From a virus: a stretch of DNA of 64,000 bases. Positions 18,980 to 37,536 of the stretch are shown one piece after another; the first letter of the stretch is position 1; the number at the start of each line of letters is the position of its first letter. A program made the position numbers and the translations under genes. The notes below the pieces were generated by a model. It did not search any database. It saw nothing but the letters and a program-made list of their open reading frames with translations, and was not told the origin of the DNA. The DNA lies in IMG/VR virus record IMGVR_UViG_3300032893_000028, positions 1 to 64,000 of that record; one strand, given 5' to 3'.

Positions 18980-21007
18980 ATGGCCGCACGAGTCACAGCG
19001 CTCACCGTCAACGTCGGGACCGCGCAAGAGCTCGAGGTAGCCCAGGGCGAGGACCGCGACTTCCAGCTCCTGTTCAAGGACGGCGGCGTCGCGGTCGATA
19101 TGACCGGCGCGCTCGCCGTCGTCCTGTCGGTGCGCGACGCGCAGGGCGTCCTCCTTTTCGCCCGCATGTACACGGGCTTCGTCGGCGGTGACCCGACGAG
19201 CGGCAACGTCATCTTCTCCGTCCGCTCGACGGACACGATCGAGAAGTCCGCCGGGCCGTATACGGCCGACGTCGTCCTCACCCGCTCGGACAGCTCGCGC
19301 GAGCAGCTCCTCGTCTCGTCCCCCTTCGTCGTCCTCACGTCCGAATCCCTATTCGCCGACGTCGTCACCACGCCGCCGGCCGTGCCGCTCGTCTTCGGCC
19401 TCAACTGGCTCGCCGGCTTCTGGTCGGGCGGGACGTCCGGCTACAACCTCAACGACGCGGTGCAGGCGTACGATCCGACGCTCGGCGCCACCGCCGTGTC
19501 GACCTTCCGCGCCACCGCGCAGGGCATCACCCACGCACCGATCAACGCCAGCCTGCTCCAGGTAGCGACGGGGTGGGCCTACGTTGGCCAGCACGGCGGC
19601 GCGGGCGCCACCGGGCCGACCGGTCCGCGCGGCGCGACGGGGCTGGGGACCACGGGCGTGACCGGGCCGACGGGCCCGGCCGGCGTCACCGGCGCGACGG
19701 GGCCTACCGGCCCGCGGGGCAACACGGGTCCGACGGGCGCCGCCGGCCCTACCGGTGTCACGGGTGCGACGGGGCCGACTGGCCCCGCCGGGGCCACCGG
19801 CGCCACGGGTCCGACCGGTGCGCGCGGCGCCACCGGGGTCACCGGCGCGACGGGTCCGACGGGTCCGGCCGGCGTCACGGGCGCGACGGGACCTACCGGC
19901 GCCCGAGGAGCGACGGGCCCGGCGGGGGCCACAGGCGTCACGGGCGCGACGGGACCCACCGGGCCGCAGGGCGGCGTGGGACCCAAGGGCAACACCGGGC
20001 CCGCCGGTCCCGCGGGGGCCACCGGCGCTACAGGTCCGACCGGACCGCAGGGTGCCGCGGGCGCGCGCGGCAACACGGGGCCTACCGGACCGGCCGGCGC
20101 CACGGGGGCCACCGGACCTACGGGACCCGCGGGCTCCGTGGGCGCGCGCGGCAACACCGGCCCGACCGGGCCGGCGGGGGCCACCGGCGCAACGGGCCCG
20201 ACTGGGCCCCAGGGCGCCACGGGGCCCGCCACCATCAACTTCACTGGATCGCCGACGTCGTTCGTCGCGCCCGGCGGCATGATCGTCGCCTCGCCTACGT
20301 CGCTGTCTCTGGGCATCGCCGGCGACGGGCCGACCGGGCTCGCCACGCTCTTCGTCACGGCCCAGCGCATGCGCATGGCGCAGGTCGCCGGGGTGAGTTC
20401 GCTCGTCAACCCGGCCTGGCAGATCGTGGGCGCCTCGCACCGCCTCGCGCCGTCGGGCACCGAGATCTTCGACGTCAACATCGCGCTCAACGCCACGGTC
20501 GAAATCCTCGGCGGCACGGTCTCGCAGAACCGCTCGTTCATCCTGAGCCCGCGCACGATCGGCTTCGCCTCGGGCAGCTCGGGCACCGTGAACATGGCGG
20601 CCGCGCTCGCCATCAATGGCGCGCCTATCCCGGGCACCGGGGCGGCCTTTCTCGACTCGGCGGCGTTGTGGGTGCAGACGGGCATGGCCCGTCTCGACGA
20701 CCGGCTCAAGATGGGCGCGTCGGGTACCAAGCAGCTCTGGGCGGGCTCGCTCTTCCCGGGCGCCGCCAACCAACCGCTGGCGATCGGCCCGACCAATACG
20801 GCCTGGCTCGGCCTCGGGCCCACCAGCGCCGCGCTCGGCTTCTTCGGCGTCTCGGGCTGCTTCCAGCCCTCGGGCGCCGGCGTCACGGGCGGCGCCACCG
20901 GCACCACCTTCTTCGACGCCCGCTCCAACGGTGGCACGGGTAGCCAGTACTACACGCACGCCGACCTCGTCCTCGTCTTCAAGCGTCTCGGCCTACTGGC
21001 CACGTAG
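18980..21007 (+). CDS. Collagen-like fibre protein 1
   Basis: Globular N-terminus, about 70 Gly-X-Y triplets rich in GPT/GAT/GVT, globular C-terminus. Confidence 0.8.
19604..20229 (+). repeat. Collagen Gly-X-Thr repeat tract
   Basis: [12 protein letters not shown]-type triplets. Confidence 0.9.
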
Positions 21008-21050
21008 CCCACAGCGCGAAAATTTTCGCCTTGCGCTGATTCTGCGCGCC

Positions 21051-21428
21051 GTGACACATTCGAGTCACGTGGCGCCGTTTCCAGATTTTCTCGACGAGAA
21101 AGAAGACTATGAGGGGGCGGACCTCACCAAGAACAAGGTCGTGCACGTCCGGCTGCTCCCCATTACGTGGGTGTGGGTGCGATACGAGGCGCGGCGCTGC
21201 AAGCTGCGGCCCTCCGAGTGGGTGCGCGAGGCCATCCTCAACTACGACGATGAGGCCGCCACCGATTTGATCATCAAGGACAAGGTGCTGCACGTGCGCG
21301 TGGACAGCGAGCAGTGGGCGCACCTGCAGAAGGCGGCCCGGGGGGCGGACCGGCGCGCCGCCGACGTCATCCGCCGGGCCATCAACCAGCGGCTGCTCGC
21401 CAGCGGCGACGACAAGGGGAAGAAATGA
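21051..21428 (+). CDS. Tandem ribbon-helix-helix regulator (start uncertain, 21051 or 21069)
   Basis: Two KV.HVR...W......A......S/A..IR.AI units. Confidence 0.6.
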   Translation: MTHSSHVAPFPDFLDEKEDYEGADLTKNKVVHVRLLPITWVWVRYEARRCKLRPSEWVREAILNYDDEAATDLIIKDKVLHVRVDSEQWAHLQKAARGADRRAADVIRRAINQRLLASGDDKGKK

Positions 21429-24202
21429 GCATCGAGCTCTCGATCGCGATCATCGCCAAGGACGAGGAGCAGAATCTGGACGCGGCCCTCGCCTCCGTCA
21501 AGGGGTGCGCCGACGAGATCATCGTCGTCGACACGGGCTCGACCGACAACACGACGGCGGTGGCCGAGCGCCACGGCGCGCGCGTGGCGCTGTTCACGCC
21601 CGAGACCGACCCCGACGCGTTCTTCCGCGACGACGAGGCGACCTGCGCCGCCTTCGGCGTGCCGCCGCCGTATTCGGGCGAGGTCATGCTGGGGGACTTT
21701 GGCGCCGCCCGGCGCAAGTCCTTCTCGCTGGCGCGCGGCGAGTTCGTCTACTGGATGGACTCGGACGACGTGGTCGAGGGGGCGCCGAACCTGCGCGGCA
21801 TCGTGCAGCAGATGCGCGCGGCCAACCTGGACCTCGGCTTCCTCGCCTACGACTACGCGCGCGACGCCCAGGAGCGGACCTTCTACCGGCAATGGCGCGA
21901 ACGCGTCGTGCGCGCCGGCGCCGCCGTGTGGGTCAACCCCGTGCACGAGGTGCTCATGCCGACGCGCCCGGTGCAGTCGGCGCGCTTCGAGGGTGTGCTC
22001 AACGTCCACCGGCGCAAGGTCGACCGCAAGTCGGTGCCCAACCGCAACTACAAGATCCTTCTCCGCCAGCTCGCGCGCGACCGGGCGACCGGCGCCGTGG
22101 TCGACCCGCGCACGCTCTTCTATCTCGGGCAGGAGGCGCGCTGGATCGAGCCGCACAGGTCGCGTGAGTTCTACGAGGACTACCTCAAGCGATCAGGCTG
22201 GTGCGAGGAGCGCGCGGCGGCGCACGTGGCGCTCGGCTCGATGTACGAGTTCGGCCAATTCGGCGGAACCCCCGAGGAGTCCTACGCCAAGGCCGATATG
22301 CACTTCGCCGCGGCGGCGGCGGAGATGGCCGACAACCCCGACGGGTTCTTCGGGCTGGCGCGCATCGCGTACCTGCGCGGACGTTACGCCGACTGCGTCT
22401 CGTACACCGAGCGGGCGCAGAAGATCGGCAACACCGAGTCCATGCTTGGCGCCAACCCGCTCGACCGCACCTACCGCCCGCACGTCTACCTCAACCACGC
22501 CCTGGCTAAGCTCGGCCGAACCGAGGAGGCGATCGCGAGCTGCGAGGCCGCGCTCAAGGTGTGCCCCGAGGACCCGGGCGTCCCCGGCGGCGCGCCGGGC
22601 ATGATCAAGCACAACCTCGCCGTCTACCAGGCCGAGCTCGCCGCGCGCCGCGCGCCGGCTGCGCCCGCGCCCCAGAAGGCCATGGTCGAGTTCACCAAGT
22701 TCGAGGACCTCGACGCGCCGCCCGTGCAGCAGAACCCCGACGCCTATGTGATTTACGCCATGCAGCTCTGGAAGCAGTGCGCGGCGTGCGGCGACGAGGC
22801 GGGCGCGCGCGGGGCGGTGGCGGCGGCGCGCTGGACGGGCGACGCGGTGGTCGAGCGCATGCGCGCGGCGACGGAGCGGCGATGGCCGGCGCGCAATTCC
22901 CACATGGGCCCGACGCTCGATAGCTTCCTATGTGAAGAAGGAATCAAGGACGATGTCGACAAGCTAACGAAGATGAAGCTCGATGAAGTGAAGCTCTACG
23001 AGGCACGTGAAATCGTTCGGCAGTACAAAACCAACGATAGGCAGCGCGTCGCCTTCTGGGTCGGCCCCTCGGTCGAGCCCTGGGATCCGAACACGCCGAA
23101 CACGCGCGGCATCGGCGGCAGTGAGACGGCGTGCGTCGAGCTGGCGCGCGAATTGGCCGCGCTCGGGCATGAGGTGACGGTCTACGGCGATTTACCGAAT
23201 GGTGCGGCGCACCCGGTCGGGTACTCGATCGGCTTCAATGGCGTGCACTATGTCCATTGGCAGAACGCCCGCGCGCCCATCGAGTGCGACGTCTTCATCT
23301 CCTCGCGCCAGGCTGCCATCATGGAGCGCCCCGACGACGTGCGCGCGAGGGTCAAGCTTCTTTGGGTGCACGACGTCAACGTCGGCCCCGACTCGCCGCA
23401 GATGCAGCGCTGGCTCCTCCGCTTCGACCGCGTCCTGTGCCTGAGCGAGTGGCACCGCGGGTACTTCCTATCGTGCTACCCCGGCCTCGACCCGGCCAAG
23501 GTGCTCGTCACGCGCAACGGGATCGATCCTGCGCGCTTTCGAGTGAAGGGCTTCTCCGATGATGAAGGATTGCTGTTCAAGCAGAACCATCTCGTCTTCT
23601 CGTCGTCGCCCAACCGTGGCCTCGACACGCTCGTGCTCAACTTCCCGCACATCAAGGCGCGCGTGCCCGACGCGGAGCTACACGTGATGTATGGGTTCGA
23701 CACGTGGGAGGCGTTCGCGCGAGCGCGCGGCGACCAAGGCGAGCTCGAGCAAATTCGGCAGTTCAAACAATTCCTGAGCGACCGCGCGCATCCGGGCAGT
23801 GGCATTCATCTACACGGACGAGTCTCGCAGCAGGTGCTCGCGGAAGCGCTCATGCGCGCCAAGATTCGACCGCACTGGACGCAGTTCACCGAGACGTCCT
23901 GCATCTCCATGATGGAAGCGATGGCGGCCGGCTGCGTGCCCATCGTCTCGCGCGTCGCCGCTCTCCCCGAGACGGTGAAGCACGGCGTGTTCGTGGATAC
24001 GCCGCAGCAATTCGTCGACGAGTGCGTGCGCCTCTTGACCGACGAAAACTACCGTCGCCCGATCGCGGAAGCGGGCCGGCAATACGCGCTCGCCAACTTG
24101 TCATGGAAGTCTCTGGCGGCGGAGTGGTCGGAGATGTTCAAGCGAGTCGATGGCGAGCTGGCGATGGACCCGCTGCCAAAGTACATGGAAGTTGGAAAGT
24201 GA
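21425..24202 (+). CDS. Glycosyltransferase: GT2 + TPR + GT4-like domains
   Basis: IIAKDEE, VVDTGSTD, WMDSDD, VHE; TPR-like helices; GGSE, WVHD, SSSPNRGL, ETSCISMMEAMAAG. Confidence 0.9.
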   Translation: MSIELSIAIIAKDEEQNLDAALASVKGCADEIIVVDTGSTDNTTAVAERHGARVALFTPETDPDAFFRDDEATCAAFGVPPPYSGEVMLGDFGAARRKSFSLARGEFVYWMDSDDVVEGAPNLRGIVQQMRAANLDLGFLAYDYARDAQERTFYRQWRERVVRAGAAVWVNPVHEVLMPTRPVQSARFEGVLNVHRRKVDRKSVPNRNYKILLRQLARDRATGAVVDPRTLFYLGQEARWIEPHRSREFYEDYLKRSGWCEERAAAHVALGSMYEFGQFGGTPEESYAKADMHFAAAAAEMADNPDGFFGLARIAYLRGRYADCVSYTERAQKIGNTESMLGANPLDRTYRPHVYLNHALAKLGRTEEAIASCEAALKVCPEDPGVPGGAPGMIKHNLAVYQAELAARRAPAAPAPQKAMVEFTKFEDLDAPPVQQNPDAYVIYAMQLWKQCAACGDEAGARGAVAAARWTGDAVVERMRAATERRWPARNSHMGPTLDSFLCEEGIKDDVDKLTKMKLDEVKLYEAREIVRQYKTNDRQRVAFWVGPSVEPWDPNTPNTRGIGGSETACVELARELAALGHEVTVYGDLPNGAAHPVGYSIGFNGVHYVHWQNARAPIECDVFISSRQAAIMERPDDVRARVKLLWVHDVNVGPDSPQMQRWLLRFDRVLCLSEWHRGYFLSCYPGLDPAKVLVTRNGIDPARFRVKGFSDDEGLLFKQNHLVFSSSPNRGLDTLVLNFPHIKARVPDAELHVMYGFDTWEAFARARGDQGELEQIRQFKQFLSDRAHPGSGIHLHGRVSQQVLAEALMRAKIRPHWTQFTETSCISMMEAMAAGCVPIVSRVAALPETVKHGVFVDTPQQFVDECVRLLTDENYRRPIAEAGRQYALANLSWKSLAAEWSEMFKRVDGELAMDPLPKYMEVGK

Positions 24203-24699
24203 GACCGACAGTAGACGAACGCTTCGACGCTAAATGGATACCAGAACCAAATACTGGGTGCTTTCTTTGGTTCGCTGCGCGCGACAAGGATGGTTACGGT
24301 ATTTTCTGGGATGGCGAGAAGGACGCAAAAGCGCATCGTCATGCTTTAGAGAAAACAGGGGTTCATATTCCTGCGAATAAGCTGGTTTGTCATCGATGCG
24401 ACACGCCTGAATGCGTCAACCCGGAGCATCTGTGGATCGGCACGGCAGGAGACAATAACCAAGATGCGGCGCGTAAAGGCCGTTCCGCGAGTGGAAATCG
24501 AAACGCTTCACGCGCGCGACCAGAAACGCGCCCGCGTGGCACTTCGCACTATATGGCCAAGCTCTCCGCGAATGATGTCTTAGAGATTCGTAGACGTTTC
24601 GATGCGGGTGAAGCGCATAACTCAATAGCTCGTGACTTCGGCATCGGACGCAATAACGTCAGCGAAATCGGTCGCCGTAAGACCTGGAGGCATCTATGA
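24199..24699 (+). CDS. Free-standing HNH homing endonuclease
   Basis: EPNTGC, AHR, VCHRCDTPECVNPEHLWIGT..DN; C-terminal HTH; low GC. Confidence 0.88.
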   Translation: MRPTVDERFDAKWIPEPNTGCFLWFAARDKDGYGIFWDGEKDAKAHRHALEKTGVHIPANKLVCHRCDTPECVNPEHLWIGTAGDNNQDAARKGRSASGNRNASRARPETRPRGTSHYMAKLSANDVLEIRRRFDAGEAHNSIARDFGIGRNNVSEIGRRKTWRHL

Positions 24700-25760
24700 G
24701 AATCCTCATCACCGGCGGCCTCGGCTGCATCGGCTCGCAGATCGCGCGCTCGTATCTCGACGAGAGGCACGAGGTCGTTCTCATTGACTCGTGCGAGGAA
24801 GCGCGCAACGAATGGATTTATCAAAAATTCATAAATTACGCCGATCAAACTACCGTGTATGTCGGACGCATGGAGCATCGGGATACGGAATCGTGGATAC
24901 ATCAGATATTGCCTTCATGCGACGCTGTCATCCACGCCGCCGCGTCCACCGGCATCCCGCACTCGGCCTTGCACCCGGACGACGACTGGGCCTCGAACGT
25001 CGACGCCACCAAGGTGCTGCTCGACGCGCTCCGCGAGCGCCCCGTGCCGACGGTGGTGCTCTCTAGCGTGAAGCCTTATCGCACGACTTTCGGAGGCCCG
25101 GTCTGCGAATCTATCGACGGAGGGGGCATTCGTTTGCGCATGAACGCGTCGCAAGCGGACGAGATGCAAGCCCACGGCGGCCTCCGCGAGGACGACCCAC
25201 TCGAGCCCGACGAGCCCTACGCCGCGTCGAAGGCGGCGCAGTCCATGCTCGCGATGGCCTGGGCGCGGTCGTACGACTTGCCCATCGTCACGCTGCGCTG
25301 CTCCAACCTCTACGGCCCGGCGCCGTGCCACGGCCCGCGCCATGGCTGGCTGACGTGGTTCTGCATCGCCGCCGCCATCGGCCGACCCATCGAAGTGCAG
25401 GGCGGTGGCGCGCAGGCGCGCGACATGCTTTTCGGCTCGGACGTCGCCGCGGCGTGCCGGGTGGCGCTCGCCAACGCGCCTGCGCTCGCCGGCAAGGTCT
25501 TCAACATTGGCGGCGGGCGCGCGAACGTGACTAGCGTGCGGCGCATGGCCACCAAGATCCAGGGCATGACTGGGTGCGAGGTGGTCGAGGGTCCCGGGCG
25601 CAGGCACGAGGATCAGCTCGTCTTCGTCGACCACTCGCGCTTCACGGAGGCGACGGGGTGGCGGCCGCTGGTCGACGTCGAGGAGGGTTCCGACCGCGTG
25701 CTTGCCTGGGCGGAGGAGAACGCGGATGAGCTCAAGAAGGTCTACGAGGGGGTCAAGTAG
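24696..25760 (+). CDS. NAD-dependent nucleotide-sugar epimerase/dehydratase (CDP-paratose epimerase-like)
   Basis: ITGGLGCIG, YAASK, NLYGP, GWLTWF and QARD motifs. Confidence 0.85.
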   Translation: MRILITGGLGCIGSQIARSYLDERHEVVLIDSCEEARNEWIYQKFINYADQTTVYVGRMEHRDTESWIHQILPSCDAVIHAAASTGIPHSALHPDDDWASNVDATKVLLDALRERPVPTVVLSSVKPYRTTFGGPVCESIDGGGIRLRMNASQADEMQAHGGLREDDPLEPDEPYAASKAAQSMLAMAWARSYDLPIVTLRCSNLYGPAPCHGPRHGWLTWFCIAAAIGRPIEVQGGGAQARDMLFGSDVAAACRVALANAPALAGKVFNIGGGRANVTSVRRMATKIQGMTGCEVVEGPGRRHEDQLVFVDHSRFTEATGWRPLVDVEEGSDRVLAWAEENADELKKVYEGVK

Positions 25761-25928
25761 ATGCGTGTTCTCGCGCTCTCGTATAACGCCCGTGGCGAGA
25801 TGCTGAGGCGCTCGGGCGACAAGCTCATCGTGGTCCGTCTCGACAATGGCAAAACGGTCTATGAATCCGTCGCGCGATGTATCCCACAAGACGACGAGGC
25901 CAAGAAATTTCTAGCGGAGGGGAAATGA
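25761..25928 (+). CDS. Small hypothetical protein (55 aa)
   Basis: Abuts the epimerase stop; ATGA overlap with the next gene. Confidence 0.5.
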   Translation: MRVLALSYNARGEMLRRSGDKLIVVRLDNGKTVYESVARCIPQDDEAKKFLAEGK

Positions 25929-26728: not shown

Positions 26729-26947
26729 ATGCGTCGCATCACGATCGCCGGCGAGAAGTGGTGGTGGGCCGTTCGTAAAGAGCCCGATTATTCGGAATAC
26801 ACGCCCTGTAATTTGCGCACTATGACGCTCCAGGGGCCCGACGGATATCGTCGATCGTTTACGCTCGATTATGATACGTCGCCTGTGACGCCCTCAAAGG
26901 TGGCGAATATCATCCGCGAGAAGAAAGCGACTTGGCCATGCGTTTGA
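26729..26947 (+). CDS. Hypothetical protein
   Basis: 72 aa, lower GC, abuts neighbours. Confidence 0.5.
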   Translation: MRRITIAGEKWWWAVRKEPDYSEYTPCNLRTMTLQGPDGYRRSFTLDYDTSPVTPSKVANIIREKKATWPCV

Positions 26948-27546
26948 ATCTCGCCTCGGGCACCGACATTCGCGACGGCTGGGTCAACCTCGACGTCGTC
27001 GAGAAGTGGCCGCTGGCGCGGCGCGGCTGCGATGTCGTCTGGGACGCGCGCTCGCAGGCCATCCCGTTTCCCGACGGCAGCGCCAACGAGATCTACGCGG
27101 GCTACCTCCTGCTCCATCTCGCGCCGCACCACCACGGCCGCGTGCTCGACGACATCCGCCGCGTGCTGCGCGTCGGCGGTCGGCTGGTCGTGGGCGAGGT
27201 GGACATGCGCGAGGTAATGCGCCGGTGGTTGGCCGACCCGCGCGACGCGCGGCTGGCGGAGCTGGTCTGGGGCGAGCAGGGCGCGTTGCCACCGCGCAAC
27301 TGTCTCATCTGCCAGGCGTCCGAAGCGCGGATGCGGCATGAAGGCAAAATGGGCTATGTCATGTGCGGCGAATGCCTGGCGCACGAGGAGCAGGCGCGCC
27401 TTGCCGACTTCGACAAGCATTGCCACGGCTACACCGAGGAGACGCTGCGCGAGGCGTTGGCGGCGCACGGCTTCCCGTTGGCGCGGCGGATCAACGTCCA
27501 CGGGCCGGCCGTTTGGTACGAGCTCACCCTCGAGGCTTTCAAATAA
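26938..27546 (+). CDS. Class I SAM-dependent methyltransferase
   Basis: LNLASG, GWVNLD, IPFPDGS and RRVLRVGG motifs; CxxC...CxxC insert. Confidence 0.8.
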   Translation: MRLNLASGTDIRDGWVNLDVVEKWPLARRGCDVVWDARSQAIPFPDGSANEIYAGYLLLHLAPHHHGRVLDDIRRVLRVGGRLVVGEVDMREVMRRWLADPRDARLAELVWGEQGALPPRNCLICQASEARMRHEGKMGYVMCGECLAHEEQARLADFDKHCHGYTEETLREALAAHGFPLARRINVHGPAVWYELTLEAFK

Positions 27547-27726
27547 ATGGGTCGACATAAATCGAAAAATCCGAAGGAAACGCACATCGGCATTCGTGTC
27601 GATAAGGCGCTGGACGCGGCCATCACGGCCGAAGGGAAGCGAATCGAGCGCGAGTTAGGACTCACGCTCAAGAAGTCGGACATCGTGCGGATGCTGATTC
27701 AGCGCACATTGGGAGCTAAGCGATGA
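27547..27726 (+). CDS. Ribbon-helix-helix DNA-binding protein (59 aa)
   Basis: HIGIRVDKALDAAI...KKSDIVRMLI; too short for the ORF track. Confidence 0.65.
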   Translation: MGRHKSKNPKETHIGIRVDKALDAAITAEGKRIERELGLTLKKSDIVRMLIQRTLGAKR

Positions 27727-29972
27727 GTCCGTTTCTCAGCGTGATTGTGCCGACCTACCGCGCCGGCGGAATCGACGTACTGCTCGACGCGCTCGCCGCG
27801 CAGAGCTACACCGACTTCGAGCTGGTGCTCGTCGACATGCTCAAGCGCCACCGCGCCGAGAAGGTGGCCGCGGAGGCGCGCGACCGGTTCCTGCGCGTCG
27901 TCCACGTCGAGCCCAAGCCCTCGCCGTTTCCGATCGCCAGCTACTGCGCCTGCGCCAACGTGGGGCTCGCGGCGGCGTCGGGCGAGGTGGCGCTCTTCCT
28001 GGCCGACTACTCGCGGCCGACGCCGGGCGCGCTGGCGGCGCACGCCGCCTTCCATCGCGCGGACAAGACGGCCGGGCGCGCCGGGCTCATGATGCCGCAC
28101 CGGTACGTGGCGCTCGAGCTGGAGCCGCGCTTCAATCTGCGCTACGCAGCCTCGGATTGGGAGCGATACGCGCGTGATATCGAGCGCGGATATCTCGACC
28201 CGTGGATGATCTCGATCGGCCAGCCCTCCGAGCGCGCCGACGCGGGGCACGAGGTCGACGGCGGCGGGCGCGCGACGGCGGACGCCGACCCCAAGCTGCG
28301 CATGGCGGCCGGGCCGATCGACGCCAACTTCTTCCACGCCAAGTGCGAGTCGGTCCGGCTCGAGCGTTGCCTGGAGGTCAACGGCTTCGACGAGGACCTC
28401 GACGGCGGCCACGGCTACCAGGACTCCGACTTCGCGGCGCGGCTGTCGCTCAAGGCCGGCGTGCAGTGGACGCTCGACCCGTCGCTCGCGTGCGAGATCG
28501 CCAACCCGCGCGGCGTGTTCCCGATGCTGCGCCGGCTGCGCGACGTGCGCGAGAACGAGGCGATCTGGCGGAGCAAGGCCGCCGCGGGCTACCCGCCGAC
28601 CAACCCGCGGTGGAGCCTGCGCGAGCGCCGTGCTATTTTCCTGTCCCAGGGTTCCGGCGTCGTCGAGGGTCCACCCCCGACCTCCCCGCCGGCGGCGCCG
28701 GAGCCCCCTTTGACCTTCAGCATCAAGATGCGCGTCAATATGTCGCCGGAAGTCGTGGATGACCTCCGCGAGCGCGCCGCGAAGCGAGGAACGACACTGG
28801 ACGAGGTCATGAAGACGGCCGGGGTTCCGCCACGCAGACTGCGCGTGGCGATGGTCTACGGCGAGTTCTCGACGGCCATCCACGGCCCCTTCGACTTCGC
28901 CAAGCTGGGCGACGCGGCGCTCACGGGCAGCGAGGGCTCGTTCTTCAACCTCGCCCGGTCGCTGGCCGAGCGCGGCCACGAGGTGGTCGTGTTCGCCCCG
29001 GCCGCCGCCGCGCACCACCACGAGTCGGGCGCGCACATGCTGCCCATCAAGGCGATCCGCGGGCTGCCCTCCGTCCCCGGGCTCGACGCGGTGGTGGCGT
29101 GGAACGAGCCCGACTACCTGGCCCACGCGCCCAAGGGCGTCCTACGCGTCGTCAACCAGCAGCTCAACGACTGGGGATACTGCAAGCCTGATTGGGGGAA
29201 GCTCGTCGACCACTTCGTTTTCCCGTCAAAATCATCGCAGGGAAATCACGAACAGTATATCGGTGACAGTCTTCGGCATCCGAAGTACGCCAGCGTCATC
29301 CCCAACAGCGTCGACCTCGACCTCTTCGAGCGCCACGCCGTCGAGCGCGTCCCGCACCGCGTCGTCTACTGCTCCTCGCCCGACCGCGGGCTGCACCACC
29401 TCCTGGCGATGTGGCCGGCGGTGCGCACGCGGGTGCCCGACGCCGAGCTCAAGATCTTCTACCGCATCGAGCCATGGCTGCAAGCCAACCTGCTCAATCC
29501 TAACGAGATCGGCCAGCGGGCGCGCTTCGTCGAGGAAGCGCTGCGGCGGCTCGGCCCGGCCCGGGGCGTCGAGGTCGTTGGCCCCGTGCCCAACCGCGAG
29601 ATGGCGCGCCAGCTCCGCATGGCCTCCGTCCTGGCCTACCCGTGCGACCCGGTGCGCTACACGGAGGGCTTCGGCTGCTCGGTCCTCGACGCGTGCGCGG
29701 CGGGCTGCCTGCCGATCATCTCCGATGCCGACGCGCTGGCGGAGGTGCACGAAAGCGGAAGTGAAGTGATTGCGGGCAGACCAGGTGATCACATGCAAAT
29801 CTGGATCGACACCATCACCAAGCATTTAGGGTACATCCCGCCGGAACATCCGAAGGGCGCGCCGTATTACACCGATCGAGGAGATATCATGTGCGTGGCG
29901 TCGGTGCACGCCCAGACCCACAGCCGCCAGAAGGTGGCGGAGATGTGGGAGCGCCTCCTGTCGCGAACGTAG
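27723..29972 (+). CDS. Glycosyltransferase: GT2 + GT4-like domains
   Basis: LSVIVPTYR, NGFDED...GYQDSD; TGSE, IPNSVD, SSPDRGL, EGFGCSVLDACAAG. Confidence 0.88.
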   Translation: MSPFLSVIVPTYRAGGIDVLLDALAAQSYTDFELVLVDMLKRHRAEKVAAEARDRFLRVVHVEPKPSPFPIASYCACANVGLAAASGEVALFLADYSRPTPGALAAHAAFHRADKTAGRAGLMMPHRYVALELEPRFNLRYAASDWERYARDIERGYLDPWMISIGQPSERADAGHEVDGGGRATADADPKLRMAAGPIDANFFHAKCESVRLERCLEVNGFDEDLDGGHGYQDSDFAARLSLKAGVQWTLDPSLACEIANPRGVFPMLRRLRDVRENEAIWRSKAAAGYPPTNPRWSLRERRAIFLSQGSGVVEGPPPTSPPAAPEPPLTFSIKMRVNMSPEVVDDLRERAAKRGTTLDEVMKTAGVPPRRLRVAMVYGEFSTAIHGPFDFAKLGDAALTGSEGSFFNLARSLAERGHEVVVFAPAAAAHHHESGAHMLPIKAIRGLPSVPGLDAVVAWNEPDYLAHAPKGVLRVVNQQLNDWGYCKPDWGKLVDHFVFPSKSSQGNHEQYIGDSLRHPKYASVIPNSVDLDLFERHAVERVPHRVVYCSSPDRGLHHLLAMWPAVRTRVPDAELKIFYRIEPWLQANLLNPNEIGQRARFVEEALRRLGPARGVEVVGPVPNREMARQLRMASVLAYPCDPVRYTEGFGCSVLDACAAGCLPIISDADALAEVHESGSEVIAGRPGDHMQIWIDTITKHLGYIPPEHPKGAPYYTDRGDIMCVASVHAQTHSRQKVAEMWERLLSRT

Positions 29973-29984
29973 TAGAATCGCCCC

Positions 29985-32900
29985 ATGGCGATCGTCCTGC
30001 CTCGTCTGACGGGTGTTCTCGAGGACGGGACGGGCTCGCTCGCGCAGTCCACCCAGCAGCGCGCGTTCCAGCGCGCCGCGTCCGGCACCATCTCCATCAC
30101 CTGCTTCCGCGCCAGCGGCGCGCGCTTCAACCTCACCGGCGGCGCGCTCGTCTGGACGGTGGCGGACGGCAAGGGCGTCGAGATCTTCGCCCGCGCCGCC
30201 GACTTCGACGACGCCGCCAGCGGCGAGGCTACCTTCACCTTCGTCACCGAGGACACCGACCAGGCCGGCGGCGTCTCCAACTCCAACATCATCGGCCAGC
30301 ACGACGTCGCCTTCGTCGACAACGCGGGCACCTACGGCGTCCCGGGGGCGATCTACCAGCTCGTCCCGCCGTCGATCCTGTACCTGTCCGATCTGCTCCT
30401 GCCCATCCCGCCCGTGGTCACGCCGCTGCCGCCGCAACTCCCCTTCTCCCAGGGCGCCACCGGCGCGCCGGGGCCAACGGGGCCCGCGGGTGTGACCGGC
30501 CCGGCCGGCCCTACGGGCGCCGCGGGCCCACAGGGCGCGACCGGCCCCGCCAACGGACCGCAGGGGCCGACCGGACCGCAGGGCGCTACAGGCCCGACAG
30601 GGCCGGCGGGTACCAATGGAACCACCGGCGCGACGGGACCGACGGGGCCGCAGGGTCCTACAGGCGCCGCCGGTCCCACCGGCGTCACGGGCGCGACCGG
30701 CCCGACCGGCCCCGCAGGCGCCAACGGTGCGCAAGGCGCCACCGGCCCGACTGGCCCGCAGGGTCCAACCGGGACGCCCGGACCGACCGGCGTCACGGGG
30801 GCGACAGGTCCAACCGGCCCCGCCGGCGCACAAGGAGTGACAGGACCCGCGGGGCCGCAGGGCGCAACGGGCCCAACAGGGCCGCAAGGGCCGACAGGAC
30901 CGCTTGGCGGCGGACCTCAGGGCGTTACCGGCGCAACGGGGCCGACAGGACCGCAGGGAGCCCAAGGCGTCACGGGCGCGACGGGCCCGACGGGTCCCCA
31001 GGGAACGCAAGGCGTCCAGGGCGTCACCGGGGCGACGGGGCCGACCGGCCCGGCCGGCAGCACGGGCCCGGCGGGGCCGAACAGCCCGGCCTCCGACAGC
31101 ACAGTCGCGCTCGGAACCACCAATCTGCGCTGGCTCGGCTTATACAATGCGGGCCCGCTCGGCGGCGGCTGGACGCAGGTGGCCATGGGCGCCGCCAGCG
31201 GCTGGACCGCCAGCGCGCGCAGCTACGGCGTGGGCGTCACGGGCGCCTCGGGCGACCGCATCGTCCAGCTCCCCGCGGCGGCGCAGTTCTACGCCGGCCA
31301 GGAGCTACGCGTGCGCGACGTCGGCGGTGGCGGCAACGTCCTCGCCGTCAAGTCGGCCGGCGCCGACCGCATCAACGGCGCCACCGGGGTCACGTCTACC
31401 GCGGCCTACGCGCAGTGGCTGCTCGTCTCCGACGGCGCCTCCAACTGGTACGCGTCGCTCGGCCCGACGGGGCCGACCGGCCCGCAGGGGGCCACGGGCG
31501 CGACGGGTCCCACGGGCCCGGCGGGGACGACCGGCGCCACCGGCCCGACCGGACCCCAGGGCGCGCAGGGCGTCACGGGTGCGACCGGCCCGACGGGTCC
31601 GCAGGGGAGCCAGGGTGCGCAGGGCGTCACGGGGGCGACGGGCCCTACCGGCCCGGCTGGTGTGCAGGGGGTCACAGGCGCCACGGGTCCGACGGGGCCG
31701 CAGGGAGCCACGGGCCCGATCGGCCCGCAGGGCGCGACGGGGCCGGCGGGCGGCGGTGGCGGAGGCACGCCGACCACGCTCCAGGGCGCGTACAACGCCG
31801 GGCCCTCGGGGCCGCAGGCGATCGCGCTCGGGCCGTCGAGCGCGGGCCTGTACGGCGTGCTCATCCAGGACATGACCGGCGGGACGACGGGGCCGATCTT
31901 CGGCGTCGGCGGCCCGAGCGGCACGACCGGCTACCTGGTGGTGTACCCGACCGGCGCCTTCGCACAGGGTCTCGTGGTCGGCACTGGCAACAACTACGGT
32001 CAGTTCAACGCGGTGCCCGGCAGCAACACGGGGTACCCGAGGATCCTGCTCGCCACCGACAACATCTCGGCGGTCACCATGCTCGAGCTCGTCAACTCGC
32101 TCTACGCGACGACGAGCCAGTTCGCGCAGGCCGGCAACCTGGCGCTCTTCTCGGCCGGAGACATCTTTCAGATCTACACGCAGAACGGCGGCGTAGCGCT
32201 CCTCGACCTTCGAACGCTGACCGCCTCCTTCAACGGCGCGGTGCAGCCGGGCGCGGACGCGGGCGCCGCGCTGGGCGCAACTCTTCGGCGATGGAACGGC
32301 CTCTACAACGTGGGGCCCTTATCCGCCGCGCTGTCCGTCAAGGCCTCGCCGACGGGGACGCCGTACGTCCTGGCATCCACCGACCACTTCATCGGGTTGA
32401 CCGGGGCGTCGGGCACGAGGAGCGCGTTCCTGCCCGCGGCCAGCAGCGTTCCCGCCGGTCAATTCATCCGCGTGCAGGACGTGGCCGCCAACCCCAACGG
32501 CTTCCTGCTGGCGACCGCGACGGGGGCGACGGCCGACCGCATCAACGGCGCCACGGGGCTCACGCTGGCGGCGCGCTACGGCGGGATGATGGTCGTCTCC
32601 GACGGCGCCACCAACTGGTACGCCGCCGACATGGCGGGCTCGCTCCAGGACGCCTACGCCAACGGGGCGAGCGGGCCCGCTGTCATCGCGATCGGTCCGA
32701 CGGGCTGGTACGGCGTTCTCATCCAGGATATGGGCAGCGGCGTAGCCACCGGACCGATCTTCGCCGTGCAGAATGCGCTCGGCACCACCAACTATCTGCG
32801 CGTGCAGGCCACCGGCGTTGACACCGTCGGGTATTTCAAGGGCAAGCGCCTCGACTTGAGCGTCGGCAAGGCGATCGGAACCAACAGCTTCACCGGCGCG

Positions 32901-33212
32901 CGGTTCGGCAACAGCGCCGGGAGCATCACGGGGTATACGGGGACCGACTCGGCCGGGCAATTCACGATCGTGGTCGGCGTGACCGGCTACACCATCAATC
33001 CCCAGATCACCATGTTCTACGCCGACGGGCCGCGCGCGACGCCCCGCTACATATCGAAGCTGCGCGCCTTCTCGCCCACCACCTTAGCGCCATATCTCGT
33101 CGACAACGAGACACCCACGTCCGTCACATGGACGCTGATAGGCAACGGGGCGCAGATGGGCGCGCCCACGGGCCTCGGCTTCTACACCATTGAGTACATG
33201 GGCCTGGGGTGA
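29985..33212 (+). CDS. Collagen-like fibre protein 2
   Basis: Two Gly-X-Y tracts interspersed with duplicated globular modules. Confidence 0.8.
30453..31748 (+). repeat. Collagen Gly-X-Thr tracts (about 30453-31079 and 31461-31748)
   Basis: [10 protein letters not shown]-type triplets. Confidence 0.9.
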
Positions 33213-33261
33213 GGTGATTCTGCCTTGCGCAGTCGGCGCTGCGCGTGTTGAATTGTGACAC

Positions 33262-33764
33262 ATGCAAACGATCGCGCTGACTCGCGGACATGTAGCCTTA
33301 GTTGACGACGAGGACTACGAAAAACTCCAGAAATGGAAGTGGTTTGCGCAGCCGTCCTCAACATCCTGGTACGCCAAACGTGATGGGCGTACCAGGGGGA
33401 AGGCATCGTTTATATGCATCGTGTCATTTGTGAAGCGCCTCGAGGTGTCGAAGTCGATCATATCGATGGTAACGGTTTGAATAATTGCAAAACTAATTTA
33501 CGATTAGCTTCTCGTCGAGAAAACGCTAGAAATACTCGAATATTTGTGCCCAAAAAATCGCGATTCAAGGGAGTTTCTTGGTTCACGCGCGATCAGTGTT
33601 GGCGTGCGTACATTTGCGATAAGTCAGTACAATTCGGAAAGTCGCCGCAGCGCCATCTCGGCTATTTCGATTCTGAATTAGAAGCCGCGCGAGCGTACGA
33701 TATCGCTGCCGTCAAATCCTTCGGCGTTTTTGCGGCCGTCAATTTCCCGTCGGAGAAAGCATGA
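33262..33764 (+). pseudogene. HNH-AP2 endonuclease split by a frameshift
   Basis: N-terminus ALVDDEDYE..W in one frame; MHR..VDHIDGNGLNN..NLR and AP2 domain (FKGVSW, HLGYF, AARAYD) in the -1 frame. Confidence 0.75.
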
Positions 33765-34459
33765 GTCTCAATGTAGTTTGCGTTCATGCCAAACACGGGT
33801 TTCGATTCGCCGAGGTGTCCGGTACGCCGGCCGATCACGCGAGTCATTGGTCCTTCGACGACGAGCAGGAGGTGCGCGACCGCTGGTGGCGCGCCCAGCC
33901 GGGCGAGACCGTGCTCGACGTCGGCGCCGCGTTCGGCAGCTACGCCCTGCCCGCGCTGGCGGCCGGCGCGCGCGTCGTGTGCTTCTCGCCGGCGGACTTC
34001 GACACGGAGCTGCTCCGACACAATCTCTCGCTCAACCCCGAGCTGGCGCGGCGCTGCCTCGTCGTGCGCGACGGGCTGCACGAGCGCGACGGCTGGTTCG
34101 ACCCGGATCATTCGCACTTTACTGACGACGTCGGACCTCTTGGAATTCCGAGTCCGAAGGGCTACCAATGGCTCCGCGTGCGCTCGCTCGACTCATGGCT
34201 CGCCGAGCGGCCTGGCGTCGACCACGTCGACCTCGTCAAGATCGACGTCGAGGGCGCAGAGCTGGGCGTACTCCGGGGCGCCGCGGGCATGCTGCGCCGC
34301 TGGCGCCCGCGGCTGCTGGTCGAGCTGCACGAATTCCACGTGCCGGACATGGCCGCGCGGATCTGGGCGTTCCTGGAGAGCCTTGAGCTCGGCTACACCG
34401 TCGAGGGGCCGGTCAAGCACTGCGCGGTCTCCCACGCGTTCTACGAGGTGAAGCGGTGA
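33761..34459 (+). CDS. FkbM-family methyltransferase
   Basis: VLDVGAAFG and VKIDVEGAELGVLRG motifs. Confidence 0.88.
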   Translation: MSLNVVCVHAKHGFRFAEVSGTPADHASHWSFDDEQEVRDRWWRAQPGETVLDVGAAFGSYALPALAAGARVVCFSPADFDTELLRHNLSLNPELARRCLVVRDGLHERDGWFDPDHSHFTDDVGPLGIPSPKGYQWLRVRSLDSWLAERPGVDHVDLVKIDVEGAELGVLRGAAGMLRRWRPRLLVELHEFHVPDMAARIWAFLESLELGYTVEGPVKHCAVSHAFYEVKR

Positions 34460-35988
34460 AGCCTACCGTCTGCCTCATCACGCCGCCGTCGGTGTTCCTG
34501 CTCGACGAGCGCGTCTTCCCCAACCTGGGGATCCTCAAGATCGCCGCCGCGCTGGAGGCGCGCGGGTACCCAGTAGAGCATCTCGACCTCGACGGCGTCT
34601 CCAACTTCGAGCAGGCCGTCGAGGCGCACTTCGAGGCCTCGTCGGCCGAGTACGTGGGCATCACCTGCACCACGCCGCAGCTCCCCGCGGCGGTGCGGAT
34701 CGCGCGCGCCATCCGCCACGTGCGCGGCGTCGCCGGGCCGCAGCTCATCGTCGGCGGCCCGCACCCGACCGTTACGCTGGCGGCGGTGAAGAAGGCCGGC
34801 GCTGGCGGCCGCGCGGGGCGCGCGCTCGAGCGGCTCAAGCAGGAGTTCGACGTCGTGGTGGCCGGCGACGGCGAGGAGTCGATCTTCTCGGCAATCGGCG
34901 CCTCCTACGGCAGCGTCATCGACGCCGACGACGCCAAGTCGCCGCTCTTCCTGCTCGGCAAACGGCTCGAGCAGGCGCCGTGGCCGGCGAGGCACCTGCT
35001 CGACCTCGACAGCTACCGCTATAAGATCGACGGAGTGCCCGCGTCCACGCTGGTCGCGCAGCTCGGCTGCCCATTCCGCTGCACGTTCTGCTCGGGGCGC
35101 TCGTCGCCGATGCTGCGCCGCGTGCGCTTCCGACCGACCGAGGACGTGCTGGCGGAGGTCGAGCACCTCCACGTGCGCTACGGCTTCCGGGGCTTCATGT
35201 TCTACGACGACGAGCTCAACGTGTCGAAGGGCATGATGGACCTGATGCGCGGCATGGCCGCGCTCGCCAAGAAGCACAATACTGAGTGGCGCCTGCGCGG
35301 CTTCGTCAAGGCCGAGCTGCTCACGCAGGAGCAGGCCGACGCCATGCACGAGGCCGGCTTCCGCTGGCTGCTCTGCGGCTTCGAGAGCGGCAGCGAACGC
35401 ATCCTGGCCAACATCGAAAAGCAGGCCACCGTCGCCGATAATGATCGCGCCGTCGAGTACGCGCGCCGCGCCGGGCTCAAGGTCAAGGCCCTCATGTCGC
35501 TCGGCCACGCCGGCGAGTCGGCCGAGACGATCGCCGACACCGAGGCGTGGCTGCGACGCGTGCGCCCCGACGACTTCGACGCCACCGTGATCACACCCTA
35601 CCCGGGCTCGCCGTACTACGACGAGTCGGTGCCGTCGGAGTTCGTCTGGAACGACCGCTCGCGGTTGGAAACTGCCAACAAGCTCCAGGCATGCTGGACG
35701 TACACGCACCCGAAGTCGGGCGATCGGTTGCACATGGTCGAGCTTGACTACGCCGAGACGGTTGACTTCTACAAGGGCGCGCCCGGCGAGTACCGCGCGT
35801 ACACGTGGACCGACCATCTTTCGTCCGCGGACCTCGTGCGGATGCGCGATGAGCTGGAGACGCGCGTGCGCGCCGACCTCGGCATCCCCTACAACGCCGG
35901 CGCGCCCGGGATCCAGTTCGAGGCGTCGATGGGTCAGACGAAAAAACTCCCGCCGTCGATTTTGAGGTCGACGGCGGGAATGTTATGA
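34456..35988 (+). CDS. Cobalamin-binding radical SAM enzyme
   Basis: PNLGIL, VGGPHPT, GDGE, GCPFRCTFC, FYDDEL, GFESGS and TPYPGS motifs. Confidence 0.9.
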   Translation: MKPTVCLITPPSVFLLDERVFPNLGILKIAAALEARGYPVEHLDLDGVSNFEQAVEAHFEASSAEYVGITCTTPQLPAAVRIARAIRHVRGVAGPQLIVGGPHPTVTLAAVKKAGAGGRAGRALERLKQEFDVVVAGDGEESIFSAIGASYGSVIDADDAKSPLFLLGKRLEQAPWPARHLLDLDSYRYKIDGVPASTLVAQLGCPFRCTFCSGRSSPMLRRVRFRPTEDVLAEVEHLHVRYGFRGFMFYDDELNVSKGMMDLMRGMAALAKKHNTEWRLRGFVKAELLTQEQADAMHEAGFRWLLCGFESGSERILANIEKQATVADNDRAVEYARRAGLKVKALMSLGHAGESAETIADTEAWLRRVRPDDFDATVITPYPGSPYYDESVPSEFVWNDRSRLETANKLQACWTYTHPKSGDRLHMVELDYAETVDFYKGAPGEYRAYTWTDHLSSADLVRMRDELETRVRADLGIPYNAGAPGIQFEASMGQTKKLPPSILRSTAGML

Positions 35989-36171
35989 CGTCTTTTTTTC
36001 CTCCGCCTCGACCAGCTTTGCTATCGCTTCTCTAATTCGTTTGTCCGCCAATCCTCTAATTGGCTCTCCAGCTATCCATCGACGAACACTGCGATAGTCT
36101 ACGCATGCGGCTTCAGCGATTTCTAATTCGCGTTCACGACTAATGATCCGCTTAGGAATTTTCTTCATCAT
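35983..36171 (-). CDS. Small HTH DNA-binding protein
   Basis: EIAEAACVDYRSVRRWIAG; own promoter. Confidence 0.6.
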   Translation of the reverse strand: MMKKIPKRIISRERELEIAEAACVDYRSVRRWIAGEPIRGLADKRIREAIAKLVEAEEKKTS

Positions 36172-36189
36172 CCCGCCTTTCTTCGCGCA

Positions 36190-36230
36190 AACCTAATGTT
36201 GCCTATCGTGTTCGTCAACCAAATTCTACT
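36190..36230 (-). promoter_or_regulatory. Early-type promoter, copy 3
   Basis: AGAATTTGG-TTGACG-N17-TAGGTT. Confidence 0.7.
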
Positions 36231-36265
36231 TTACCCGCGCGCGCCCTGCCGCTAGTCTCGTCTCC

Positions 36266-36574
36266 ATGCGAACCGTCATCATGTACACGTGCCTCACGCT
36301 CTCGTCGGTCATTCTCATTCTCGTGGCCTGCGCCGCGCTGCTCGGCTGCGCGCCGGCGCCCGACGGCCGAGTCGCGCCGCTGGCGGTGCGCCCGCCGTCG
36401 CTGTGCGCGGACGGGGGCGGCTGCCCCGAGGGGCTCCTGTGCGCCGACGACGGCCACTGCGGCGAGCCGTGCGGGGTCAACTTCGCCTGCCCGCTCGGCT
36501 ACTACTGCTCGGCGCGCTTCCCCGGCCACGACTGCCTGCCGCTGTGCCTGCGCTCCGACGCGGGGTGCCAGTGA
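36266..36574 (+). CDS. Cys-rich lipoprotein
   Basis: Hydrophobic leader, LLGC lipobox, about 11 Cys in the C-terminal repeat region. Confidence 0.65.
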   Translation: MRTVIMYTCLTLSSVILILVACAALLGCAPAPDGRVAPLAVRPPSLCADGGGCPEGLLCADDGHCGEPCGVNFACPLGYYCSARFPGHDCLPLCLRSDAGCQ

Positions 36575-37536
36575 AGGCTCGCCGACTCGCCCTCCTCACC
36601 GGCGGCGCCGGGTTCCTGGGCTCGCACCTCGTCGATCGGCTGCTCGCCGACGGGCGCGACGTCGCGGTCGTGGACGACTTCTCGACCGGGCGGCACGCCA
36701 ATCTGGAGCACCTGCCCGTCGGCGCGATCAAGGTCCTGGAGCTCGACGTGCGCTCGCCCAACGCGGCCCGGCTCATGGCCTCGTTCGAGCCCGACGAGGT
36801 CTACCACCTGGCCTGCCCGGCCAGCCCGCCGGCGTACCAGCGCGACCCGCAGAAGACGATCGAGACCTGCTTCCTCGGCACGCGCGCCGCGCTCGACGCG
36901 GCCGAGCGCTCGCGGGCGCGCTTTCTCATGACTTCGACCTCGGAGATCTACGGCGACCCGCCGGCGAGCCAGCACCCGCAGCGCGAGGAGTACTGGGGCA
37001 ACGTGAATCCTCGGGGATCTCGATCCATGTACGACGAGGGCAAGCGCGCCGCCGAGGCGCTATCGTGGTGCTACGAGCAGCGCGGCGTGCAGGTACAGGT
37101 GGCACGCATCTTCAACACCTACGGCCCGCGCATGGCCCCGGACGACGGCCGCGTCGTGAGCAACTTCGTGTGCCAGGCGCTCGCCGGCCAGCCGCTGACG
37201 GTCTACGGCGACGGGTCGCAGACGCGCTCGCTCTGCTACGTCGCCGACACGGTCGACGCGCTCGTGCGCCTGATGCAGATGCCGCACCCGATCGGCCCGG
37301 TCAACGTCGGCAATCCGGCCGAGGTGACCATGCTGGAGCTGGCGGAGGCCGTGGCGACGGCGATCGGGGCGGACCTCGCGGTCGACTACCTGCCCCTCCC
37401 CGCCGACGATCCCAAGCGCCGGCGGCCGGACATCGGTCGCGCGGGGCGGTTGCTGGGGTGGCGGCCGACGACGCCGCTGGCGGTGGGCTTGGCGAGGACG
37501 GTGGATTACTTCAGAGAGGCGACGCGGAGGGGCTAG
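36571..37536 (+). CDS. UDP-glucuronate decarboxylase (UDP-xylose synthase family)
   Basis: TGGAGFLGSH, HLACPASP, STSEIYGDP, YWGNVNP, YDEGKR, RIFNTYGPRM and DDPKRRRPDI motifs. Confidence 0.92.
   Translation: MKARRLALLTGGAGFLGSHLVDRLLADGRDVAVVDDFSTGRHANLEHLPVGAIKVLELDVRSPNAARLMASFEPDEVYHLACPASPPAYQRDPQKTIETCFLGTRAALDAAERSRARFLMTSTSEIYGDPPASQHPQREEYWGNVNPRGSRSMYDEGKRAAEALSWCYEQRGVQVQVARIFNTYGPRMAPDDGRVVSNFVCQALAGQPLTVYGDGSQTRSLCYVADTVDALVRLMQMPHPIGPVNVGNPAEVTMLELAEAVATAIGADLAVDYLPLPADDPKRRRPDIGRAGRLLGWRPTTPLAVGLARTVDYFREATRRG

Follow-up and report, generated by a model that had tools for sequence, protein, structure and literature searches.

A predicted protein O-glycosylation system for the collagen-like virion fibres of an uncultured wetland myovirus

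To our knowledge, virion glycosylation has been demonstrated only in some mycobacteriophages and giant viruses, and the only protein in which an enzyme has been shown to glycosylate Gly-Pro-Thr collagen repeats is a spore protein. The closest described system is that of Clostridioides difficile, in which the 358-residue enzyme SgtA, composed of a GT-A domain and four tetratricopeptide repeats (TPRs) and encoded directly upstream of bclA3, attaches beta-O-linked N-acetylglucosamine in vitro to the threonines of GPT collagen-repeat peptides derived from BclA3 (PMC7157674). Here we analysed a window of 64 kb, the first part of the 73,971-bp contig IMGVR_UViG_3300032893_000028 of an uncultured wetland phage, in which two genes for collagen-like fibres, col1 and col2, are interleaved with genes for glycosyltransferases (GTs) and for nucleotide-sugar and tailoring enzymes. 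Judging from sequence comparison, we consider it likely that this cluster encodes a cytoplasmic protein O-glycosylation system that acts on the virion's own collagen-like fibres.

The first GT gene of the cluster starts 418 bp after the end of col1 and encodes a protein of 925 residues, whose start we placed 37 codons 3' of that of the longest open reading frame (ORF), following the database gene call. The protein comprises a GT-A domain of the GT2 family (residues 1-205), a TPR domain (residues 207-409) and a GT4 domain of the GT-B type (residues ~560-925). For comparison, the sgtA gene was fetched from public C. difficile genomes using the cloning primer printed in PMC7157674. In BLASTP, the alignment spanned both domains and paired residues 3-386 of the phage enzyme with SgtA residues 2-345 (E 3e-29, 24% identity). 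When a 4.1-Mb C. difficile genome was searched in six frames with the phage module, the best place was sgtA, making the two genes reciprocal best matches, and bclA3 with its GPT/GAT/GVT repeats was found just downstream. Thus, like SgtA (PMC7157674), the phage module has a GT-A domain with a DxD motif followed directly by TPRs, can be aligned with its counterpart end to end and in both directions, and is encoded directly beside a gene with GPT/GAT/GVT collagen-like repeats; both are soluble enzymes using a nucleotide sugar, with O-linkage to the threonine at position Y of the Gly-X-Y triplet predicted for the phage. Unlike the stand-alone SgtA of about 360 residues, the phage module is fused to a GT4 domain and is accompanied by a second two-domain GT, a UDP-xylose synthase (UXS), an extended short-chain dehydrogenase/reductase (SDR), methyltransferases and a radical S-adenosylmethionine (SAM) enzyme. 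In addition, it is predicted to act on virion fibres, one of which carries a BppU-like anchor, whereas BclA3 is a spore-surface protein. Transfer of beta-GlcNAc from UDP-GlcNAc to the threonines of GPT repeats is a property known of SgtA alone (PMC7157674). It is this fusion of an SgtA-like module to GT4, together with a donor and tailoring pathway, that is particular to the phage.

An AlphaFold2 (AF2) model of the GT-A plus TPR module, built from a 28-sequence alignment, had a pLDDT of 93.6 and placed helices at residues 207-409. The top PDB matches returned by Foldseek were ThuS and SunS (E 7e-15 over ~400-430 columns), the S-/O-glycosyltransferases of glycocins (SunS and ThuS; 7msn, 7msk). 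These enzymes are peptide-directed and resemble the phage protein over the entire GT-A and helical-repeat module, and SunS (yolJ) is itself prophage-borne, in SPbeta. They differ in that their substrates are small secreted bacteriocin peptides, modified mainly at cysteine, and in having neither a collagen partner nor a GT4 fusion. For TarS and TarP, which act on wall teichoic acid, the match was limited to the GT-A part. Within the GT-A domain, D36, T37, G38, S39 and D41 of the VDTGSTD stretch and D112, D114 and D115 of the DxDD motif were invariant in sets of 23 and 28 homologues. In the GT4 domain, the EX7E pair likewise did not vary among homologues, and no informative solved relatives of the GT4 domain were found. 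The family of the GT-A plus TPR module is large, ~14,000 cluster representatives matching with E values of 1e-30 or below. Three homologues of the 925-residue enzyme (P0015, P0030 and P0046) have ~1200 residues each and contain an intein domain (PF14890); inteins are mostly found in conserved, important genes. The 925-residue enzyme is predicted to start and to extend a protein O-glycan.

Two fibre genes with long Gly-X-Thr (GXT) collagen tracts on the + (late) strand, described in an earlier note on this DNA, are indeed present. Col1 begins with a BppU-like anchor (residues 1-122), carries its GXT tracts at residues 209-417 and ends in a globular part, while in col2 the tracts occupy residues 157-366 and 493-588, with globular domains between and after them. 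Col1 contains 68 Gly-X-Y triplets, 44 of them with threonine at Y, the commonest being GAT, GPT, GPA and GVT; col2 contains 101 triplets (56 with threonine at Y), and its tracts are devoid of Lys, Arg, Asp and Glu. Together, the two proteins offer 100 threonines at Y and carry only 7 charged residues in their 169 triplets, none of them in col2. GPQ is likewise among their dominant triplets. The AF2 model of col1 residues 1-122, which rests on a shallow alignment of 7 sequences only, showed a beta-sandwich with a pLDDT of ~80-90, and its best Foldseek matches were anchors that attach trimeric fibres to baseplates and necks, namely Bas63 connector chains, the 80alpha baseplate, BppU of TP901-1 (3uh8, 4v96) and the Sf14 neck (E 2e-6 to 2e-4). 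Both fibre genes come after the baseplate genes. With moderate confidence, the modelled fold and the gene position suggest that the collagen proteins are virion fibres and that col1 has a BppU-type anchor. A 116-residue ORF (8661-9011), located between the tail chaperone and tape-measure genes, has a C-terminal module of ~60 residues in common with col1 (20830-21007). The module has the pattern LGFFG ... YYT ... GLLA, is present in two copies only in the genome and may be a docking or assembly element.

The cluster is embedded in the late structural region of the genome. The contig ends overlap by 85 bp (positions 1-85 equal 73886-73971, and the first 25 bases are found again at 73,886), and the assembly is therefore circular and the genome, with a GC content of ~68%, complete. 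On the + strand, genes for terminase, portal, Mu-F-like and DUF2213 proteins occupy 66-74 kb and are followed, across the circular junction at 1-15 kb, by those for the major head protein, tail sheath, tape measure, and baseplate hub and wedge. The sheath, tape-measure and baseplate genes identify the virus as a myovirus, as had been proposed. The late operon extends from ~65.7 kb through the junction to ~36 kb, so that the cluster lies in the late structural direction, and from 37.5 kb onwards the - strand holds the replication genes. No cultured phage has a head protein with more than 27% identity to that of the wetland phage, and a megablast search of the cluster DNA against 50,697 phage records gave no match. 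Most of the stretch is present in two wetland metagenome sequencing runs, with no RNA run listed. This layout bears on the possibility that the enzymes glycosylate the bases of the phage DNA, the classical role of phage glycosyltransferases (reviewed in PMC12619734). However, the cluster sits between fibre genes in the late structural direction, while a candidate DNA-modification module (PAPS-reductase-like) lies apart from it at 58-61 kb in the early region; moreover, no genes for hydroxymethyl-pyrimidine synthesis were found beside the GTs, and both homology and fold indicate protein substrates. We regard DNA glycosylation as extremely improbable.

A survey of phage genomes for co-occurrence of the GT with collagen genes, suggested in the earlier note, revealed that the pairing recurs. 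The 925-residue enzyme has about 70 full-length homologues of 44-77% identity, most of which lie on contigs no longer than 72-77 kb. Of six relatives on viral contigs (37-81% identity), five had GXT tracts within 10 kb; the sixth, L013, encodes a col1 orthologue without a collagen tract, and its contig stops before col2. The gene order col1-GT-...-GT4-col2-FkbM is kept in close relatives, whose GTs are 49-81% identical. Two contigs of 150-198 kb carry a 1533-residue collagen gene, the GT, GT4 and the radical SAM gene in series, and giant GXT collagen genes lie upstream of the GT on large contigs in which the GT is 36-42% identical. Genes flanking the cluster on the large metagenome contigs gave weak matches to phage-type PHROGs, and these contigs may belong to large phages. 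In a set of 80 metagenome loci (28-77% identity, GC 0.30-0.67), a collagen tract was present within the fetched sequence in 26, and 12 of the 19 loci with at least 9 kb of upstream sequence had a collagen gene upstream on the same strand, some encoding 1400-2000 residues. Stand-alone homologues were retrieved when GenBank phage records were searched with SgtA as the query: in the Actinomycetia phage DSL-LC01, an SgtA-like gene ends an operon that holds two GPT collagen genes, and in the cultured Tunturiibacter phage Tunturi_5, such a gene (gp35) lies 3.7 kb from the GXT tail fibre gene gp29. Counting C. difficile, DSL-LC01, Tunturi_5 and the metagenome loci, the pairing is thus shared by a Firmicute chromosome and by phages of several types that are not related to each other.

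In a phylogeny of the GT-A plus TPR module calculated with IQ-TREE under the posterior mean site frequency (PMSF) model, SgtA grouped with two collagen-associated phage clades (SH-aLRT 93), apart from a capsid-adjacent clade and from distant stand-alone bacterial proteins. FastTree recovered the same topology with weak support. We take the shared clade of SgtA and the collagen-associated phage enzymes as suggestive only.

Several observations weigh against fibre glycosylation by this cluster, some of which concern the enzyme and others the supply of sugars. The phage module shares just 24% of its residues with SgtA, which sits on a long branch, and the grouping of SgtA with the collagen-associated clades is only moderately supported. 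A metagenomic subclade (L115, L161 and L179) has no collagen gene despite 9-10 kb of flanking sequence. Furthermore, GT2-TPR-GT4 enzymes are not confined to collagen loci. In the capsid-adjacent sister clade, represented by 74 relatives (L019-L092; 25-35% identity) on podovirus contigs of ~40 kb, the major capsid gene is followed 0.5-1.5 kb downstream by the GT gene at 71 of the 74 loci, and a collagen tract was found at one. In this sister clade, the GT gene is followed by further glycosyltransferases and methyltransferases, as in the annotated example MW202524 (L093:1656-5432), and at several inspected loci, an ITITN- or ITTTN-type sequence takes the place of the nucleotide-binding VDTGSTD stretch in the GT-A domain. 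The sister-clade genes may be a capsid glycosylation system.

The sister clade also raises the question of whether the GTs of the wetland phage decorate other virion proteins, such as capsid, tail tube or sheath, and adjoin the fibre genes incidentally. Such a role would have a precedent in Che8-type mycobacteriophages, where, according to the passage of PMC12619734 citing Freeman et al. (2023), GTs encoded among the structural genes place glycans on the phage's own capsid and tail tube. In addition, a weak SgtA-like gene of Dickeya phage JA13 lies in the head module. The same passage describes the mycobacteriophage targets as the C-termini of capsid and tail-tube proteins, in phages of a different host group. 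No sequence similarity to actinobacteriophage glycosyltransferases was detected in the 50,697 phage records: a tblastn search with the 925-residue enzyme matched 16 records, none of which belonged to a mycobacteriophage or another named actinobacteriophage. Moreover, within the clade of the wetland phage, the GT gene always adjoins collagen genes and not head genes, and GPT collagen repeats are the substrate of SgtA, which is the closest of the characterised homologues. We also considered a G-x-T-G or x-T-G sequon shared across the non-collagen virion proteins and rejected it, since the apparent excess (26 vs 9 expected) came almost wholly from the two collagen proteins; once these were removed, G-x-T-G occurred 10 times vs 6.4 expected, half of the occurrences coming from one small ORF. 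We consider it unlikely that other virion proteins are the targets, and retain the fibres as the probable substrate.

With regard to sugar supply, the earlier note had inferred that the phage makes its own donors, a Ugd-like dehydrogenase and UXS converting UDP-glucose via UDP-glucuronate to UDP-xylose. For the second half of this route, UXS aligned with human UXS1 (2b69; residues 5-320 vs 24-332, E 6e-99) and retains the GxxGxxG, TSE and YxxxK (YDEGK) motifs. The Ugd-like protein has the GxGxxG stretch of the NAD domain, the GGTCFPKD motif and the catalytic-Cys central domain, but it is devoid of the C-terminal UDP-binding domain (PF03720), a defining feature of Ugd. Hence it is not established that the phage can by itself convert UDP-glucose into UDP-xylose. 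The missing domain does not reflect decay, because the short form is kept in the relatives L001 and L016 and all of the best 120 listed homologues are without PF03720 (252-322 residues, bar one fusion of 454 residues to a SIS domain). Members of this large two-domain family occur on phage-like contigs and in Patescibacteria (Uhrbacteria and Parcubacteria). Given its sequence, the protein should not be filed as a standard Ugd. Two further points belong to the same side of the argument. A terminator-like hairpin sets UXS apart from the rest of the cluster; the hairpin is probably the terminator of the late unit and precedes the stop codon of the radical SAM gene (35986-35988), and it is followed by an AT-rich spacer of ~280 bp, a lipoprotein-like ORF and then UXS, which seems to belong to a separate transcription unit. 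In addition, the accessory enzymes vary among relatives: of the 80 metagenome loci, 19 encode UXS, 11 encode FkbM, 10 encode the radical SAM enzyme and 1 encodes the short Ugd-like protein, a distribution that fits a conserved core around which glycan tailoring diversifies. UXS homologues directly follow the GT in many relatives, for example L142, and radical SAM copies that are 54-57% identical adjoin the GT in L017, L018, L116 and L122.

Table 1. Features in and around the glycosyltransferase and fibre cluster, with positions in the 64-kb window.
Feature	Position	Strand	Assignment and remarks
SGNH/GDSL-type hydrolase	17523-18941	+	Pfam Lipase_GDSL_2 at residues 285-461, below cut-off; hydrophobic segment at residues 2-24
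col1, collagen-like fibre 1, 675 aa	18980-21007	+	Pfam Collagen 8e-29
GT2-TPR-GT4 enzyme, 925 aa	21425-24202	+	Pfam GT2 (PF00535), TPR_1/TPR_2, GT4
HNH endonuclease	~24199-24699 (start approximate)	+	Pfam HNH_3, zf-His_Me_endon
Extended SDR, nucleotide-sugar epimerase-like	24696-25760	+	Pfam Epimerase 1.5e-40
Short Ugd-like protein, 267 aa	25925-26728	+	PF03721 and PF00984
Class I SAM methyltransferase with Cys4 insertion	26938-27546	+	Pfam Methyltransf_11; 84% identical in L001
Second glycosyltransferase, GT2-like and GT4	27723-29972	+	Pfam GT4 families; GT2 5.6e-4
col2, collagen-like fibre 2, 1075 aa	29985-33212	+	Pfam Collagen 2e-37
HNH-AP2 homing-endonuclease-like gene	33262-33764	+	Pfam HNH_3 and AP2 on 33414-33764
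FkbM-family methyltransferase	33761-34459	+	Pfam Methyltransf_21 1.3e-19, TIGR01444
B12-binding (class B) radical SAM enzyme	34456-35988	+	PF02310 at residues 21-118, PF04055 at residues 202-365
14-bp GC-rich hairpin, T runs on both sides	35946-35981		Terminator scan; just before the radical SAM stop codon
Small Cys-rich ORF, 102 aa	36266-36574	+	Signal peptide, lipobox-like motif
UDP-glucuronate decarboxylase / UDP-xylose synthase (UXS)	~36559-37536 (start approximate)	+	Full-length match to human UXS1
tRNA-Tyr (GTA)	49323-49404	-	Single tRNA gene, early region

The remaining enzymes that had been listed for the cluster, namely a GT2-TPR-GT4 and a GT2-GT4 glycosyltransferase, an epimerase, two SAM methyltransferases and a B12 radical SAM enzyme, are all encoded on the + strand (Table 1). 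The GT2 part of the second glycosyltransferase falls below the Pfam cut-off and is supported by a match to NCBIfam EpsD at residues 5-157 (4e-13). This protein showed no similarity to SgtA, and L014 and L016 encode its GT4 half only; col2 starts 13 bp after its gene. The best solved relative of the SDR is CDP-tyvelose 2-epimerase, and the protein has the YxxxK motif and is devoid of the TDE dehydratase motif (Asp-Glu pair). The radical SAM enzyme shows the class B arrangement of a B12-binding domain followed by a radical SAM core, and among solved structures it comes nearest to 9ccb and the sugar-modifying AprD4. No informative solved relatives were found for the FkbM methyltransferase. In L001, a syntenic relative with a GT of 80% identity, both HNH genes are missing; they are therefore mobile passengers outside the pathway. 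The HNH-AP2 gene is apparently frameshifted near 33400, with an N-terminal fragment in a different frame, which points to a homing endonuclease in decay or to an error in the sequence. Each GT gene is preceded by a small ORF with ribbon-helix-helix-like repeats (21051-21424 and 27546-27722). In tblastn searches, these two ORFs, the ORF at 26729-26947 and the lipoprotein-like ORF had no counterparts in relatives, and whether the ribbon-helix-helix-like ORFs are genuine genes is uncertain. Upstream of col1, the SGNH/GDSL-like protein is probably secreted or anchored, and not a classical tail fibre, because it has an N-terminal signal or membrane-anchor segment. A homologue of its C-terminal part lies in L016 just upstream of the large GT gene and downstream of the col1 homologue; its membership in the glycosylation pathway is uncertain.

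This gene content could also be that of an auxiliary island in a variable fibre region that alters an envelope glycopolymer of the host (teichoic acid, lipopolysaccharide or exopolysaccharide), for example to block superinfection. GTs in the tail-fibre regions of marine myophages have been interpreted in this way (PMC7029224), the GT-A domain resembles TarS and TarP as well, GT4, UXS and FkbM proteins are common in polysaccharide loci, and the cluster is adjoined by the secreted or anchored hydrolase and the lipoprotein-like ORF. On the other hand, the similarity to SgtA, ThuS and SunS, which glycosylate peptides and proteins, extends beyond the GT-A part to the whole GT-A plus TPR module. No membrane segments were found in the cluster enzymes, and searches of the genome for lipid-carrier glycosyltransferase (initiating phosphoglycosyl transferase), flippase and polymerase genes found none, which argues for a soluble, cytoplasmic and protein-directed chemistry. 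Modification of a host polymer would also leave unexplained why the pairing with GXT collagen genes recurs across GC contents of 0.34-0.67. We consider this alternative quite improbable and return to the collagen fibres as the probable substrate.

From the gene content, homologies, fold and conserved neighbourhood computed here, we infer the substrate, donor sugars, glycan composition and role as follows. During late expression, the TPR domain would hold the unfolded or folding Gly-X-Thr tracts of both fibre proteins, while the SgtA-like GT-A domain would move the first sugar from a nucleotide sugar onto the threonine hydroxyls at position Y. By analogy with SgtA, this first sugar would be a beta-linked N-acetylhexosamine. 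Extension to a short oligosaccharide may then fall to the GT4 domain of the large enzyme and to the second, GT2-like-GT4 enzyme. UXS would convert UDP-glucuronate to UDP-xylose, other donors may come from the epimerase-like SDR and perhaps from the short Ugd-like protein, and the two SAM methyltransferases and the B12 radical SAM enzyme may tailor the sugars. Xylose and methyl groups are predicted in the glycan on the grounds of gene content, in a set of genes that varies among relatives. The central inference of the earlier note, that the neighbouring GTs may glycosylate the fibres, is thus strengthened by the homology to SgtA, the peptide-GT fold and the recurrent pairing with collagen genes.

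As to function, the earlier note had proposed a coat resembling the spore nap, serving for shielding or adhesion. We argue that stabilization of the triple helix is at least as likely, since the tracts are almost uncharged and have no hydroxyproline system. Viral collagen-like proteins usually depend on salt bridges formed by KGD and KGE, and viruses and bacteria show an excess of TGP and TGA triplets (PMC11923368). In the passage of PMC11923368 that cites this work, (Gly-Pro-Thr)10 is a random coil unless its threonines are glycosylated, and in the cuticle collagen of Riftia, glycosylated threonine at Y replaces hydroxyproline as the helix stabilizer, as we propose here; as described there, the Riftia protein is an animal extracellular collagen made by enzymes that are unrelated or unknown. 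By analogy, the glycosylated threonines of the phage fibres most likely stabilize the triple helix and also coat the fibre. Mimivirus and other giant viruses offer a further parallel, in that the virus encodes nucleotide-sugar pathways and GTs for its own fibrils and collagen-like proteins are present, although these viruses infect eukaryotes and their enzymes are unrelated (reviewed in PMC9614988).

In the literature searched, the coverage of which was incomplete, we found no description of a phage SgtA-like enzyme with collagen fibres. Collagen glycosylation in giant viruses proceeds via hydroxylysine. For the phage, we tentatively put forward a broader proposal, which we hold to be possible though doubtful as a whole: threonine O-glycosylation might be a folding requirement of uncharged, hydroxyproline-free fibres and hence the viral counterpart of prolyl hydroxylation. 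The SgtA-like-GT4 fusion might also lie at the heart of a virion-glycosylation system that is widespread among environmental phages and has no description in the literature searched, acting on collagen fibres in myoviruses and jumbo phages and on head proteins in the large podovirus clade, and the recurrent B12 radical SAM partner might act on the sugar or even on the collagen chain itself. As Tunturi_5 is a cultured phage with the same pairing, glycosylation of phage collagen fibres by an SgtA-type enzyme is directly testable. If phages do modify their fibres in this way, it would account for the frequency of Thr-rich triplets in viral and bacterial collagens, would provide compact enzyme/substrate pairs for glycosylated, hydroxyproline-free collagen materials, and would add a post-translational layer to the determinants of host recognition, fibre stability and antigenicity.

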